Assembly (NCBI GenBank): GCA_951804945.1
Contig: OX638160.1
Span: forward strand, 40,300,001-40,364,000
DNA length: 64,000 nucleotides
Direction of reading: 5' to 3'
Source: Podarcis cretensis
Taxonomy: Eukaryota
Shown one piece after another: positions 7,949-64,000 of the stretch. Each line of letters begins with the position of its first letter. Position 1 is the first letter of the stretch. The position numbers and the translations under genes were made by a program. The notes under the pieces are model-generated. The model did no database searches. It was not told where the DNA came from and was given only the letters and a program-made list of their open reading frames with translations.

Positions 7949-9160
7949 TTGACAGAATTACAAGCCTGGTAGATGAAGGGAATGCAGTGGATGTAGCCTA
8001 CCTTGATTTCAGCAAGGCATTTGACAAGGTGCCCCATGATATTCTTGTAAAGAAGCTGGTAAAATGCGGTCTTGACTATGCTACCACTCAGTGGATTTGT
8101 AACTGGCTGACTGACCGAACCCAAAGGGTGCTCATCAATGGTTCCTCTTCATCCTGGAGAAGAGTGACTAGTGGGGGTGCCACAGGGTTCTGTCTTGGGC
8201 CCGGTCTTATTCAACATCTTTATCAACGACTTGGATGATGGACTCAAGGGCATCCTGATCAAATTTGCAGATGACACCAAACTGGGAGGGGTGGCTAACA
8301 CCCCAGAGGACAGGATCACACTTCAAAATGACCTTGACAGATTAGAGAACTGGGCCAAAACAAACAAGATGAATTTTAATAGGGAGAAATGTAAAGTATT
8401 GCACTTGGGCAAAAAAAATGAGAGGCAAAAATACAAGATGGGTGACACCTGGCTTGAGAGCAGTACATGTGAAAAGGATCTAGGAGTCTTGGTTGACCAC
8501 AAACTTGACATGAGCCAACAGTGTGACGCGGCAGCTAAAAAAGCCAATGCAATTCTGGGCTGCATCAATAGGAGTATTGCATCTAGATCAAGGGAAGTAA
8601 TAGTGCCACTGTATTCTGCTCTGGTCAGACCTCACCTGGAGTACTGTGTCCAGTTCTGGGCACCACAGTTCAAGAAGGACACTGACAAACTGGAACATGT
8701 CCAGAGGAGGGCAACCAAAATGGTCAAAGGCCTGGAAACGATGCCTTATGAGGAACGGCTAAGGGAGCTGGGCATGTTTAGCCTGGAGAAGAGGAGGTTA
8801 AGGGGTGATATGATAGCCATGTTCAAATATATAAAAGGATGTCACATAGAGGAGGGAGAAAGGTTGTTTTCTGCTGCTCCAGAGAAGCGGACACGGAGCA
8901 ATGGTTCCAAACTACAAGAAAAAAGATTCCACCTAAACATTAGGAAGAACTTCCTGACAGTAAGAGCTGTTCGACAGTGGAATTTGCTGCCAAGGAGTGT
9001 GGTGGAGTCTCCTTCTTTGGCGGTCTTTAAGCAGAGGCTTGACAACCATATGTCAGGAGTGCTCTGATGGTGTTTCCTGCTTGGCAGGGGGTTGGACTCG
9101 ATGGCCCTTGTGGTCTCTTCCAACTCTATGATTCTATGATTCTATGATTCTATGATTCTA
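7949..9160 (+). mobile_element. Young 5'-truncated CR1 LINE (RT domain and C-terminus of ORF2)
   Basis: [23 protein letters not shown] and FADD motifs; one +1 frameshift in the G run at 8173-8177; (ATTCTATG)n tail; TSD TGATGTTTT at 7940-7948 and 9161-9169. Confidence 0.97.
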
Positions 9161-37444: not shown

Positions 37445-38480
37445 CCGAACATAACACCGGTCCTGAGAGATCTGCATTGGCTCCCAGTAAGTTTCAAAGT
37501 CGTGATCACTGCAGATGGTGACAGCAGCTACGAAATTAAAAGATGCCTGCTTCTTGGGAGAAAAGCAATGACAAAGCTAGACAGCATCTTAAAAAGCAGA
37601 GACATCACCTTGCCAGCAAAGGTCCGTATAGTTAAAGCCATGGTTTTCTCAGTAGTGATGTATGGAAGCGAGAGCTGGACCTTAAAGAAGGCTGATGCCA
37701 AAGAATTGATGCTTTTGAATTATGGTGCTGGAGGAGACTCTTGAGAGTCCCATGGACTGCAAGAAGATCAAACCGATCCATTCTTAAGGAAATCAGCCCT
37801 GAGTGCTCACTGAAAGGACAGATCCTGAAGCTGAGGCTCCAATGCTTTGGCCACCTCATGAGAAGAGAAGACTCCCTGGAAAAGACCCTGATGTTGGGAA
37901 AGATGGAGGGCACAAGGAGAAAGGGACAGCAGAGGACGAGATGGTTGGCTAGTGTTCTCGAAGCTACCAGCATGAGTTTGACCAAACTGCAGGAGGCAGT
38001 GGAAGACAGGAGTGCCTGGCGTGCTCTGGTCCATGGGGTCATGAAGAGTCGGACACGACTAAACGACTCAACAACACGTTTCCGAGCACAATTCAAAGTG
38101 TTGGTGCTGACCTTTAAAGCCCTAAATGACCTCGGTCCTGTATACCTGAAGGAGTGTCTCCACCCCCATCGTTCAGCCCGGACACTGAGATCCAGCGCCG
38201 AGGGCCTTCTGGCGGTTCCCTCATTGCGAGAAGCGAGGTTACAGGGAACCAGACAGAGGGCCTTCTTGGTAGTGGCGCCTGCCCTGTGGAACACCCTCCC
38301 TTCAGATGTGAAGGAAATAAGCAGCTATCCTATCTTTAAAAGACATCTGAAGGCAGCCTTGTTCAGGGAAGTTTTTAATATTTAATGCTGTACTGTTTTT
38401 AACATTTGATTGGGAGCTGCCCAGAGTGGCTGGGGAAACTCAGCCAGATGGGTGGGATATAAATAATTATTATTATTAGT
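37445..38480 (+). mobile_element. L2 LINE 3' end split by BovB
   Basis: ITPVLRDLHWLPV | RFRAQFKVLVLTFKAL..VAPALWNTLP..FKRHLKAALF; L2 3'UTR and tail. Confidence 0.92.
37501..38075 (+). mobile_element. BovB 3' fragment nested in L2
   Basis: ITADGDSSYEIKRCLLLGRKAMTKLDSILKSRDITL..HGVMKSRTRLND. Confidence 0.95.
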
Positions 38481-51804: not shown

Positions 51805-51980
51805 TTAGGACGCTGCCTTATACAAATTCAGACTATTTGTTCACCTAGACCAATATATCTGATTGGCTGTATTTCTCCAGGGTCTTAAGCAGAAGTTTTC
51901 TCCCCACATGCTACCCAATCTGTTTCAGTGATACTAGGGACTAAACCATGTGCTCTATCATTGAGCTTTGGTTTCACCTC
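51805..51980 (-). mobile_element. Old Squam2-like SINE
   Basis: gctgccttatacaaattcagacta..ctccagggtcttaagcaga..gctctatcattgagct, similar to the 23438 copy. Confidence 0.5.
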
Positions 51981-52074
51981 ATAGCTAAGTGGCTTGTAAT
52001 TAAATTATTATCCAAGTACTTAAAATACAGAAAAGTGATAGAATGCACCCCAGTGAAGGTTCACTGGAAAAAAG

Positions 52075-52435
52075 GCAAGATCAGTCTGGGAATTAGATGG
52101 AATAAGAGGAGACCAAGAGGGGAGATGATAACCATCTTTAAATATCTAAAGGGCTATCACATGGAAGATGGAGCAACCTTGTTTTCTCCTGCTCTGGAGA
52201 GCAGGATCCAAACCAACATATCCAAATTGCAGGGAAGGAGATTCTGCCTAAACATCAGGAAGAACTTTCTGATGGTAAGAGCTGTTCAGCAGTGGAGCAG
52301 ACTCCCTCAGACGGTGGTGGACTCTCCTTCATTGGAGGTTTTTAAGCAGAGGTTGGGTGGCCATCTAAAATGGAGGTTCCTGCATTGTAGAGAGTTGAAC
52401 TAGAGGACCATTGGGGTCCCTTCCAAGATTCTATT
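52075..52435 (+). mobile_element. CR1 LINE 3' end
   Basis: [46 protein letters not shown]. Confidence 0.92.
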
Positions 52436-53799: not shown

Positions 53800-54480
53800 T
53801 CGAATATATTTTGCCCTTGGGTATCGCATGTGGCGATACCTTTGCTCCCCGCTCCCCCCGAACCCCCTCAGTAGCAGCGTGAAAAGCCCGCCATTTCTCC
53901 CTCCCGCCAAAACCCGGCGCTTTGTCTGCTAGCCAATGGGATGTCCCCGCCAAGCCGCCCGCGAGGGAGGGAGCAACAAGGCTCGCGGCAGGGCTGTGAG
54001 GGGTGGGGGGGACTCGTCGAGCGCGCACGCGCAAAGGGGTCTCTTTGGCTTCGCGCGCAGGGCGCCTTCCCCGGGTCGGCGAAAGTGGGCAGGAGCGGCG
54101 GCGGCGAAAGTAGCATCCTTTCCCTATGCCCGAAAGTCCGCGGCGGCGCTGCTCCTCCTCCTCCTCCTCCTGCTGCTGCTGCTCCTCGCCTCCTCCGCCA
54201 CCAGCGCGCTTTGCACTTTCTTCCCCGCGACCCCATCCTTCGCAAGGCAAACTTTGATGGAGAATTTCACACCGCGCTGGAAAAATGCCTGTTATGAAAG
54301 GATTACTGGCACCTCAGAACACCTTCCTGGACACCATCGCCACTAGGTTTGACGGCACACGTAAGTCTCGCCCAGGCAAGGCGCGGGAGGCGCTTCTCGG
54401 GCTTGCGGGGGAAACTCTCCATCCCGTCGCCGGCGCTCTTTTGGGGAAGGATGGCTCGGGAAACGGCTCGGATCAAACTT
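53800..54480 (+). promoter_or_regulatory. CpG island: promoter, 5'UTR and exon 1 of the Elk channel gene
   Basis: Sharp rise in GC and CpG density; CCAAT box agccaatggg at 53931-53940; (CCT)n(GCT)n tract at ~54148-54195. Confidence 0.85.
54285..54360 (+). CDS. KCNH8: First coding exon of an Elk-subfamily voltage-gated K+ channel (Kv12.1), PAS-cap N-terminus
   Basis: [25 protein letters not shown] plus 1 nt (76 nt), then gtaagt donor. KCNH8 and KCNH4 share this N-terminus; the >50 kb gene-free upstream region and >9 kb intron 1 favour KCNH8. Confidence 0.88.
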
Positions 54481-60050: not shown

Positions 60051-60268
60051 CAGTGGTACCTCGGGTTAAGAACTTAATTCGTTCTGGAGGTCCATTCTTA
60101 ACCTGAAACTGTTTTTAACCTGAGGTACCACTTTAGCTAATGGGGCCTCCCGCTGCTGCCGCCGCACGATTTCTGTTCTCATCCTGAAACAAAGTTCTTA
60201 ACCCAAGGTACTATTTCTGGCTTAGCGGAGTCTGTAACCTGAAGCATCTGTAACCCAAGGTACCACTG
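60051..60268 (+). mobile_element. Tigger-like MITE, family A
   Basis: TIR cagtggtacct/aggtaccactg; TA on the right side only. Confidence 0.9.
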
Positions 60269-60768
60269 TACCATCTTAAATAAATATATTTATTTATGTT
60301 AGAAAATTTGTTCTGCCTTTTTCTCTGTTCAATGTGACCAAAGTTCACAATACCTATAAAATATCAAGGTACAATAGAATATAAGCAGGATAAAGTCAAC
60401 ATCAAGAGAACACCACTCCCCCCCAAAAAAAAATACCTCCCTCCAAACCATAAATTAAGTTACAAAAGCACAATGTAAAAAAAAAAAAAGTCTCACTTGT
60501 TTATAATGTGGTACAGAAGAAGCAGCCAATGCAGTGGCATCCTCATGTTTTGAACCACAATCCTCATCAGCTCCAGCCCACATGGCTAATGGTCAGGGAC
60601 TATAGGAATTGTAGTCCAACAATATCAGGAGGCAGCTATATTGGCTCCAATTGGGGTTTAGAGCAAGCTTTTCTAGGAAGTAATTTCTATATTTAGGGCA
60701 CCAGAGCAAAGAAGGCCCTTCTCAATGTGCAGAAATAATTAAATTTATGAACATGTAATAGACAGAGA

Positions 60769-61116
60769 GGGATGCGGGTGGCACTGTGGGTTAAACCACA
60801 GAGCCTAGGAGAAGGATCAGAAGGTTGGTGGTTCGAATCCCCGCGACGGGGTGAGCTCCCATTGCTCAGTCACTGCTCCTGCCAACCTAGCAGTTCGAAA
60901 GCATGTCAAAGTGCAAGTAAATAAATAGGTACTGCTCCGTCGGGAAGGTAAATGGCATTTCCGTGCGCTGCTCTGGTTCGCCAGAAGTGGCTTAGTCATG
61001 CTGGCCACGTGACCCGGAAGCTGTATGCCGGCTCCCTCGGCCAGTAAAGCGAGATGAGCGCCGCAACCCCAGAGTCGGTCACGACTGGACCTAATGGTCA
61101 GGGGTCCCTTTACCTT
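60769..61116 (+). mobile_element. Full-length Sauria SINE
   Basis: Head gggatgcgggtggcactgtgg; tail tttaccttt; TSD TAATAGACAGAGA. Confidence 0.93.
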
Positions 61117-61494
61117 TAATAGACAGAGAGGGTTGTATGGGAAAAGGTACTGAGGTACATTGGATTCAGGCCTTGTAAGGCTTTATATCCTATAATCATC
61201 ACAATGTTGAATGCACCCAGAACTGGACAGGCAACTAGTGTGCTTTGAAAGGTCTTTTCTCTTGCAGATATTTTACATAGTCTTCAATGGCTCCTTTTTG
61301 TAAAGTTCCATACCCTCCCATTTGATACTGTTTGGGAGAGTGAGGGCAAAGCAATATATTATCATGTGTAAGAATAGCTTACAAGTTCCAGGATGAAATT
61401 ATTACAAATGTTTAATAAAAGACATATACACCCAGGCCAATAGAGTAATAAATTTACCTTTACATAAGAAAAGAAGAAATCTAATAAACTGCAA

Positions 61495-61875
61495 AATTAA
61501 AAAATTCCTTCCAGTAGCACCTTAAAGACCAACTAAGTTAGTTCTTGGTATGAGCTTTCGTGTGCATGCACACTTCTTCAGATACACTGAAACAGAAGTC
61601 ACCAGACCCTTCTATATAGTGAGAAGGTGGGGAGGGGTATTACTCAGAAGGGTGGTGGGATTGGGTGATTGGCAGATAGCTATGATGAGCCTGTTGACGA
61701 CTCTTAATGACTGCAATAGGTCTTACAGGAAAAAGCAAGGGGTGAGAAGGTGAAAAATGGCTTTGTCATGTATAATGAGATAAGAATCCAATGTCTTTGT
61801 TCAGACCAGGTCTCTCCATGGTTTTAAGTTTGGTAATAAGTTGCAATTCAGCAGCTTCTCTTTCCAGTCTATTTC
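61495..61875 (-). mobile_element. Penelope-like retroelement 3' end (C-terminus of the GIY-YIG endonuclease region plus 3'UTR/pLTR)
   Basis: Minus strand NRLEREAAELQLITKLKTMERPGLNKDIGFLSHYT*; 3'UTR with a hammerhead and terminal ttggtctttaaggtgctac. Confidence 0.85.
61548..61585 (-). ncRNA. Minimal type-I hammerhead ribozyme
   Basis: GUAU-CUGAAGA-A-GUGUGCAUGCACAC-GAAA-GC-UC^AUAC: intact core, helix I GUAU/AUAC, palindromic helix II, AGCU palindrome at helix III. Confidence 0.85.
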
Positions 61876-64000
61876 AGAAGAAGGTTTATATATGAATTTC
61901 CGTTAACTAAGTAAGCTGCAAGTTCTGTTACTTCTTTCCATTGGACAAAGAAAAATATCAAAACAAAACAAGACAAAACCACAACTTCCTGGATTTTGGT
62001 TTCCAGCACTAGGTTGCACATTGATATGCAAACATTAAGATAGTTACATTACCAACACTGAGGGACCTATAGCAAATGTCTTCGTTTTGTTTTGTTTTGT
62101 TGTGTTGTGTTTCATGATGGGCGTAAAGCCGAATAAACATTTTGATTGATATAGCAAATGTTGCAGGCCCCAAATGTTGGATAAGAACATGTACTGTGCA
62201 TAGTTACACTCACATGGTTGGTTCACATGGGGAATATGAAAAAGGAGGGCAAAGAGGCTGAGATAAGATGCAGTTAAGTAGTGGGGAACAAGAGCCTTGG
62301 TTGTTGGAAATGTAAAGTATGACTGTTGCTCTCTAGCAATGATTTAGGGGGTCACAGTTTCAAAAGACAAGAATGAAATAATTGTGTAATTTAGTTTAGA
62401 GTGAAATATGACCGTGCAATTTTAAACCAATTTCAAAAACTGGGTTACCCTGAAGATATCACTATAAAGGCAGGAAGAAAGGTTTTTTAAACATACAAAC
62501 AAACAACAGGTCATACTGTTTGATGACATGATTTTGTTTATCTCCATGTTCGATTCTGCCTTAAGTCCACATCAAGTGTTCCCTTTAAACCTCTCTCTGA
62601 GGTTCCTATAGCCTTGTTCCTGTCTCTCATCTGCTCCATCCTTTGCTCATCTGTTTGGATGGTATTCAGTTAAGTCTAACTCAGAGTACACCTATTACTG
62701 TTAGTGAACCTAAGTGAGGCATGCCCATTAATGTCAATGGATCTGCTCTGAGCAGGATTAGCAGTGAATACAACCCATTGTGGCCAATTGTTTCCCCTGC
62801 CCAGTCTTACTCTCTTCATGTTTCTGTCAGCATTTTGTTGGGTGGGGGGATAAAGGGGAAAGGAGTTTGTGTAATTGCCTCTTTGTTTCTCAAAGACATG
62901 GTTGGGAATTACTGTAACCAGAAAAGGGAGGAGTTGTGTCATTGCAGAGGAATATGGTGGTGGATTCTACATGGTCAGTAAATCTCATTAGATAAACTCT
63001 TTTCTGCAGTTGTGATTCAGACATTTTCTAGGCAATGGTGAGGGCTAGGAACATACTTGTAAAGTAACATTTTCAAACTCAAAATATGAGATACCCAGTT
63101 TCGTGCAATGCCGATTTAAAGTAATGATCCATGTACTGCTTGCAACATTGGCCTGGGCTGCACGCTAGTTTAAAGTGCATTATGTAATAGTCAGAGAGTG
63201 CCCTATCCACTGTTGTTCACTCCATCCTTCTGGCTGTTACAAAATGAAGACCACGGTAGTAAATTAAGCATGTTAATAATGCATTGGGTAGGGGGCAAAA
63301 TACTGTAATCCCTTTGTTGTAAATCTGTAACCTGCAATGTCCTGAATATACTGCTAAGATGTTTCTTTAGTTTATTAGATTCAGAGGGCTTGAAAAGAGA
63401 ATGGAATCCACATTTAATGGAAAAGAAATGTTTTATATTCTGAATAAAATAGGTTACAGCATTTACCTTCTACAAATGGGGAAGGATTTTCCAAATACAC
63501 CAATGAAGGGTTTTATTTTTATGCCTGCACAACTGTACAGTTGGAATATTATTGTTGGAATGTTCCTATTAGATAACTGAATTCAGGGCCTTCTTAAGCA
63601 TTTCTGGTGCTGTGGTGTAAAGATCCCTCCAGCCCCTTCCCTTTTTTTAGGGTGCTGACACCACGCTTACACATTATTTCTGCTTGGGGGAAAAAAACAG
63701 GAAACATAAACAAAATTTTAGTTGCTCATTTATTAACAATGCACATATACAGTATACGACACCACCACATTGATTTTGGCAGATTTAAGACAAATTATCT
63801 TCTTATGTAACACCTTGTTTTTAACAATGTTGATTTCTTTTTAAATTCAGAATACCTGAGTTATTCATGTAAAATAGTTTGATACAGTACATTGTATGGT
63901 ATAGTTTTTCCTCACATTCTAAGGTTCTCCTAACACCTTAATCCTTTGCTTTAATAAGGGAGACCTTAAAACAATGTGCAAATGTATTTTAAAATAATTG

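Follow-up and report, generated by a model that had tools for sequence, protein, structure and literature searches.

A minimal hammerhead ribozyme in a recently inserted Penelope-like element within intron 1 of an Elk-type potassium channel gene

Results and discussion

The channel gene and the insertion site

The window analysed here (the whole 64,000-nucleotide stretch of DNA) carries on its plus strand the first coding exon of an Elk-type potassium channel gene, which we take to be KCNH8 (or KCNH8-like), and on its minus strand, inside intron 1 of that gene, a truncated copy of a Penelope-like element (PLE) with a minimal hammerhead ribozyme (Table 1). Intron 1 is 53,070 nt long and extends from 54361 past the end of the window; exon 2 starts at G000:C12:40407431 after a CAG, keeps the frame and encodes a PAS domain, and among PDB entries it matches an Eag-like K+ channel best (E 1.5e-26). 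Exon 1 with its GT, and the frame and CAG of exon 2, bear out the first-pass annotation, which had placed the motif in intron 1 of a channel gene and antisense to the channel pre-mRNA (the ribozyme is on the minus strand, exon 1 on the plus strand). No further copy of the family was found when the window and the intron sequence were scanned.

Table 1. Features of the channel gene and of the element copy (window positions)
Position	Strand	Feature	Basis
54285..54360	+	First coding exon of Elk-type potassium channel gene; GT at 54361	Frame, splice site
61492..61879	-	5'-truncated Neptune-type Penelope-like element copy: ORF end, pLTR, ribozyme	Family identity
61517..61528	-	Predicted pairing partner of the 5' strand of helix I and the core, which would keep the ribozyme inactive	MFE, pair probabilities
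61538..61567	-	9-codon uORF from loop II, weak context; AUG lost on cleavage	Translation
61548..61585	-	Minimal type-I hammerhead ribozyme motif	Sequence, fold, 6,322 exact copies, cross-family covariation
61551..61552	-	Predicted cleavage site after C17 (C17 = 61552)	Sequence
61553..61556	-	AGCU palindrome (15.1-16.1), could give intermolecular helix III	Sequence
61560..61573	.	Perfect 14-nt palindrome forming helix II; also inverted-insertion fold-back junction	Sequence, copy ends
61585..61588	-	Inferred transcription start region, Inr-like; main points 61585, 61587 (first helix I bases)	Copy 5' ends
61613..61618	-	Putative pLTR promoter, a TATA-like box starting 33 nt upstream of the ribozyme's first base	Sequence
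61766..61879	-	Final 37 codons and stop of RT/GIY-YIG ORF (aa 874-910)	tblastn 92%, E 6e-15

The site was compared in four DNA-like contig runs, among which X3, X7 and X12 represent three other organisms from three studies. In each of the three, one contig links 61493 and 61877 through 28 other letters, and at the window insertion some 28 target bases have apparently been replaced, not duplicated. Run X1 has a contig across the 5' junction of the element (33 letters on the element side) and another that reaches only 23 letters across the 3' junction. Since the site is empty in three other organisms, the element is a recent, lineage-restricted passenger; the insertion is polymorphic and likely to be without effect on the channel gene.

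Other repeats occupy the same region. An 82-bp insertion at 62068-62149 (+), flanked by 12-bp direct repeats and ending near AATAAA, is skipped by single contigs in X3, X7 and X12 and is thus a second recent insertion in intron 1, probably the 3' end of a LINE. A very high-copy SINE, presumably of Sauria type, lies at ~60780-61118 (+); its contig depth is in the millions, and many loci of the PLE family carry it as well. One terminus of a small inverted-repeat element at ~60051-60270 is joined to the TA of the helix I 3' strand in about 23 of the first 100 matches listed, and 5 more listed places have a 3-nt filler between two TAs, which resembles a Tc1/mariner excision footprint. Long frames at 8168-9067, 37632-38385 and 51945-52403 look like LINE reverse transcriptase remnants, presumably of CR1 and RTE/L2 type.

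The hammerhead motif

Read from 61585 to 61548, the minus strand has every letter of the motif as it was originally quoted, including the core, the extra A, the helices and the AGCU. Helix I has 4 bp and helix II, in the monomer, 5 bp and a 4-nt loop, while an intramolecular helix III is absent; the C3-A9 core, the GAAA, the UC and G10.1-C11.1 are all there, and the extra A stands between 9 and 10.1. The earlier placing of the cut between 61552 and 61551 agrees with the position of C17 at 61552. Helix II is, as had been claimed, a perfect 14-nt palindrome (61560-61573), and the stop of the ORF, at 61768-61766, does precede the motif by 180 nt.

A descriptor of minimal hammerheads matched once in the 64-kb window and nowhere in the next 50 kb, with 0.02 (relaxed) or 0.00 (strict) matches per window in 100 dinucleotide shuffles. 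The genome holds 6,322 exact copies of the 38-mer (3,134 + 3,188; reversed control 0) and 9,290 of a 29-nt anchor downstream of it. The folding energy of the motif is ordinary (z -0.44), and the suggested check against Rfam returned no hammerhead family at E<=10 in scans of 6 kb and 201 nt, but chance matches alone. The motif is confirmed as a real minimal PLE hammerhead situated in the pLTR.

In one common length variant the uORF that begins in loop II shares the reading frame of the main ORF. An older subfamily (L086-L115 and other listed copies) mostly has U17 instead of C17, which gives a 6-nt palindrome; by the NUH rule U17 still gives a cleavable triplet. This subfamily is also without the stop that closes the loop-II uORF, so that at the common T-tract length its AUG would be in frame with the main ORF, like that of the anole element PAc (below).

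The element and its family

The window copy is 388 bp long and 98-99% identical to 29 other fetched loci. Of the two 3' end points that recur in the family it has the shorter, tail-less one, about 8 nt short of where the ORF start codon of the next unit would stand. Longer copies of the family run into an RT/GIY-YIG ORF, and an intact array (L051), to which the window copy is 97.6% identical, contains two intact 910-aa ORFs and has a ribozyme every 3,011 bp, three in all, its units being 100% and 99.97% identical. The 910-aa protein has an RVT_1 domain at 438-586 (E 9e-12) and a GIY-YIG domain at 808-854 that scores at the cut-off. In the intact array (not the truncated window copy) a single ORF thus combines RT with a C-terminal GIY-YIG and has two Cys between GIY and YIG, as expected of an EN+ PLE, and the RT-EN linker has CX4CX2C at aa 770, in agreement with the CX2-5CxxC of Neptune elements. 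Judged by this linker zinc finger, a motif shared with Nematis, the family appears to be of Neptune type. It is young, with thousands of near-identical copies.

The layout known from EN+ PLEs was found, with tandem arrays with pLTRs, inverted partners and an optional tail of 30-40 bp. In a sample of 101 copies anchored downstream of the ribozyme, from which 9 duplicate loci had been dropped, 54 are in inverted pairs (27 pairs), and in all 27 the tail is on just one arm; 6 of the 101 end at the helix II palindrome. The window copy has neither an inverted partner nor a tail. Its identification as a non-LTR retrozyme, a type built of tandem non-coding units with a hammerhead in each, was rejected, as it is a single copy with an ORF remnant and no second motif occurs in the window or the next 50 kb.

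Several individual loci are of unusual form. L123, L223 and L047 are insertions that fold back perfectly about the helix II palindrome, and L043, L050 and L052 have head-to-tail mini-repeats that restart at the ribozyme's first base (a joint, 6443->6250, is present in RNA runs). In G000 C1:1-8 Mb the copy density (100 in 8 Mb) is about 2.5 times that of the genome as a whole (7,033 in 1,508 Mb), and copies that begin at the ribozyme's first base are fewer there (13 of 100, against 25%).

Older hammerhead families and covariation

A pattern that excluded the helix II of the main family found 81 places (control 1), mostly point mutants together with about 20 copies of older, decayed families. 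At least two such older hammerhead-bearing repeat families are present in the genome (L147, L151, L153, L154, L165, L174, L175 and L226-L235). Since tblastn found no ORF remnant beside the 17 older-family copies, their PLE status rests on sequence layout. A short purine-rich segment 3' of the ribozyme is apparently common to the older families and could pair with the helix I 5' strand.

Four rows of the main family were aligned with 15 of the 17 older copies (L174 and L175 were left out). Two-sided changes are found in 8 of the 9 pairs across the three families of this genome, so that the pairing of helices I and II, whose non-conservation among copies had been named as grounds for doubting the motif, is in fact conserved. 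The covariation measure is 0.399, against 0.187 in shuffled and at most 0.223 in slid alignments, values that the relatedness of the rows inflates. Only 70% of the paired cells are actually paired, a result of decay in the other families. It was the search pattern that imposed the core, and it also excludes T at 10.2; likewise the G-C in 18 of 18 distinct rows and the AGCU palindrome kept in all aligned rows belonged to the pattern itself. Helix II is not palindromic in the two other families. Conservation of the core across families implies selection for something.

Where the copies begin

The 5' ends of the copies bear on where the RNA of the element starts. A base other than the element's own T stands directly before helix I in 1,768 of the 7,033 copies with an intact ribozyme 5' half (the two counting patterns additionally demand a base other than T 13 nt upstream). 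Of these 1,768, the first 100 listed, ordered by position from the start of contig C1 rather than drawn at random, were counted by eye; 95 of them are truncated exactly at the ribozyme's first base, which extrapolates to about 1,700 copies (about a quarter) that start there. The extra base in those 95 is G in 67, A in 18 and C in 10 (G expected 0.30, p 3e-16). Further 5' ends cluster 2 nt upstream of this point, each preceded by T (12/12). Of the 101 copies in the downstream-anchored sample, 34 have their first base at -4..+2, 40 reach further upstream and 2 start within +33..+36; not one starts at the cut itself (+34). Loose read ends are present at the ribozyme start and at both tail points in four RNA runs, and the depth of DNA contigs in run X1 falls about threefold just upstream of the ribozyme start. 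Since so many copies begin at the ribozyme's first base and almost none at the cut, the ribozyme likely opens the mRNA, and the insertions would come from uncut, probably capped RNA. We infer that the ribozyme forms the first 38 nt of the element mRNA, with its start set by the pLTR promoter, and the short inserted copies, to judge from their ends, are likely to derive from uncut RNA.

Other origins of the cluster were considered. What precedes helix I looks like a 3' splice site, but the letters upstream are heterogeneous or fold-backs and there is no constant exon, so splicing was rejected as the main cause. A full-length subfamily variant was rejected as the source of the extra G, as only 2 of 69 G cases continue upstream (first 100 listed). 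The extra G would be either copied from the cap or added at the end by RT without a template; it is usually preceded by T or A, for which the start-site model does not fully account. A bacterial promoter scan, a method unsuited to this DNA, found nothing.

Copying of an extra G from a cap has precedent. The one match that our search for it found in the literature has the extra G at the 3' junction instead. For the other possibility, non-templated addition by MMLV RT is reported to prefer C (PMC3877366). The PLE of D. virilis is described as starting within the pLTR, but from a TATA-less promoter with an intron (PMC2377424), while rotifer PLEs are described with a TATA + Inr pLTR (PMC3846280). 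No report of a PLE start site of this kind or of an extra G was found in the titles, abstract openings and passages searched.

Predicted folding and the search for cleavage traces

In its native downstream context helix II is predicted to form (P about 0.9) and helix I is not (P 0.015), because the 5' strand of helix I pairs with 61517-61528 in the model. The predicted energies are -11.1 kcal/mol for the classical dimer, -6.0 for each monomer and -28 for a duplex of two 14-bp helix II palindromes. The first-pass annotation cited the view that such motifs cleave as dimers through the helix III palindrome. At this locus that idea found no support: the intron has no second copy, helix I has a P of 0.015, and the -28 duplex is predicted to be far more stable than the -11 dimer. 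A productive dimer through the helix II palindrome was also rejected, since the palindrome is absent from the two other families and, by reasoning, its geometry looks incompatible.

Traces of cleavage were sought in RNA and in the genome. The four RNA runs, which come from another organism (about 6-12% of each was read, and the 1,179-1,734 reads aligned are mostly 90-99% alike), have no pile-up of molecule starts or ends at the cut; fragmented RNA libraries may miss 5'-OH or cyclic-phosphate ends. Genomic copies that start at the cut came to about 5 of the first 100 of 598 listed (extrapolated, ~30) and those that start at the next base to 14-17 of 100 among 112 (extrapolated, ~17), against ~1,700 at the ribozyme's first base; starts at the cut are thus not enriched over the neighbouring base, and a genomic cleavage footprint was rejected.

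Published minimal hammerheads behave in a comparable manner. The monomer is reported to be inactive and dimers to be weak (PMC4209133). The ribozyme of PAc (Poseidon_Ac of Anolis carolinensis; Frangieh et al. 2024, PMC11167929) is described as not cleaving without protein and as yielding no reads that end at the cut, and its cleavage as dependent on C3 and G8; uncut RNA is given as the dominant insertion substrate there, and ribozyme mutants still insert in vitro.

What the ribozyme may do

The role of the hammerhead in PLEs has been stated to be unclear (PMC8557442). We consider it probable that the present one is a standard hammerhead of a Neptune-type PLE, carried by a recent antisense passenger, that acts in a gated step of the element's own RNA while the element inserts from uncut RNA. 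The pLTR promoter would start the mRNA at the ribozyme's first base, and RT would prime internally, some 90-130 nt downstream. In short copies it would run off the capped 5' end, the extra G coming from the cap or from terminal addition; in copies of the window type, made on read-through RNA of a tandem array, it would continue via the pLTR into the previous ORF. By both routes the template would be uncut or religated, and a religated circular template would equally give seamless copies such as that in the window. The ribozyme would normally be held inactive by the predicted alternative pairing and cut only slowly, when assisted by a partner RNA or, as is reported of the anole element, by the protein that the element itself encodes. 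Cleavage would strip off a capped leader of 34 nt and the start of the uORF, 64-70 nt ahead of the main ORF start, or alternatively would trim tandem transcripts to unit length. It would then have no part in insertion and would serve, as a gated step, to process or regulate the RNA of the element itself.

The principal competing proposal is that of Cervera and De la Pena, in which tandem transcripts are cut as dimers and religated to unit circles that serve as the template of ORF-containing or tandem insertions. The near-perfect array L051 with its three ribozymes 3,011 bp apart, the continuity of the window copy across the cut (religation restores the sequence) and the retention of a palindrome for a dimeric helix III all fit this circle route, which was proposed in PMC4209133. 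It cannot account, however, for the ~1,700 copies (extrapolated from the first 100 listed) that break off, with an extra G, where the ribozyme begins; the head-to-tail joints in RNA and DNA runs return to the ribozyme start and not to the cut, PAc ribozyme mutants still insert in vitro (PMC11167929), and the predicted hammerhead dimer is far less stable than the competing folds, so we regard circles as rather unlikely here. That the motif is a non-catalytic relic or a protein-binding fold, uncleaved in vivo, would accord with the want of any cleavage trace in RNA or genomic ends and with Naiad PLEs, which are said to thrive without hammerheads (PMC8557442). Yet the helices covary across three families of very different age with a recognisable core (though one imposed by the pattern), PAc cleavage needs C3 and G8 (PMC11167929), and the U17 of the older subfamily still makes a cleavable triplet; a relic is therefore, in our judgement, unlikely.

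Two further explanations involve the host gene. The first-pass annotation suggested that sense copies in introns may be selected against, and in such purging lone intact copies would cut sense host transcripts while an antisense copy like that in the window survives. In two bulk RNA runs whose ORF reads suggest stranded libraries, antisense reads do account for 54% and 60% of the depth over the ribozyme (380 antisense to 321 sense in one, 392 to 265 in the other), and Xenopus retrozymes are reported to be depleted from introns (bioRxiv 10.64898/2026.07.22.740005, the passages of which do not report strand). But sense reads span the cut at a depth of ~265-320 with no pile-up of ends, 102 and 70 of the antisense reads come from a single locus, the monomer lacks a helix III and its helix I is predicted to be sequestered, and a single antisense copy is a coin toss. 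Furthermore, over half of the copies sampled belong to inverted pairs; since such a pair offers one arm in sense to a host gene of either orientation, any effect of orientation is blunted. Strand depths and inverted pairs lean against strong selection on sense intronic copies, and we think purging quite improbable as the reason for the orientation seen here. Co-option by the channel gene, as an antisense promoter or a terminator of antisense transcripts, could appeal to the whole pLTR with its TATA-like box, which is kept and points to exon 1 some 7 kb away; against a window copy that is 98-99% identical to other copies and an empty allele in three other organisms, it is very hard to credit.

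A bolder form of regulation, speculative and on balance doubtful as a whole, is that the hammerhead, as the first 38 nt of a capped mRNA, cuts the cap off on demand. Build-up of element RNA or of the ORF protein would cause refolding and loss of the cap and the uORF start codon, and the cut RNA would leave the reverse-transcribed pool, being either silenced (a copy-number brake) or turned into a cap-independent message. The ~1,700-2,300 extra-G copies would on this account be a genomic record of the uncut, capped state. Ribozyme-linked cap-independent initiation has been reported for viral UTRs (PMC13725137), so the cap-independent option is conceivable.

Whichever form the gated step takes, the copy ends indicate that cut RNA is almost never inserted, and the cut falls in the 5' leader and not in the ORF; together these narrow what the ribozyme does to regulating or processing the RNA of the element itself. 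For the channel gene the insertion is most likely of no consequence. The family is of value as a test system, since the ends of its thousands of near-identical copies show where the RNA likely starts, namely at the ribozyme's first base.

Comparison with known systems

Minimal hammerheads are reported for fish Neptune PLEs, a turtle and snakes (PMC4209133), and the present motif shares with those described there the core, the extra nucleotide at 9/10.1, G10.1-C11.1, the palindromic 15.2-16.2, the 4-bp helix I, the want of a stable helix III, the short helices I and II with compensatory changes between families, the location in the pLTR and the thousands of single dispersed copies. Helix II differs: here it is 5 bp with a 4-nt loop and a perfect palindrome, whereas the Schistosoma families have 7-8 bp. 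The sections of that paper covered here name no lizards and make no tie to the start of transcription.

PAc is a lizard parallel, a PLE whose ribozyme lies at the junction of pLTR and ORF. A tail of 30-40 nt lies between its two internal 3' end points, its RNA has no ends at the cut and uncut RNA is its template, as appears to hold here too (PMC11167929). It is a Poseidon element, in contrast to the Neptune RT-EN linker zinc finger found here. The PAc ORF starts 26 nt before the cut, which therefore falls inside it, while the main ORF here starts 64-70 nt after the cut and only the 9-codon uORF begins inside the ribozyme.

The partial tandems, the inverted 5'-truncated partner, the one-sided tail and the TATA + Inr-like pLTR of this family are also described for EN+ PLE insertions (Craig et al. 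2021, PMC8557442; Arkhipova et al. 2013, PMC3846280), unlike which the window copy has no inverted partner or tail and replaces ~28 target bases. The dimer-cleaving PLE hammerheads of Lunse et al. (as given in the review PMC6765202) have a similar short palindromic helix III that implies dimers, but strong competing folds are predicted for the present one. The motif itself is thus already known in kind; the record of its likely position at the start site and of the extra G, which was not found in the papers searched, is a modest addition to what is known of PLEs.
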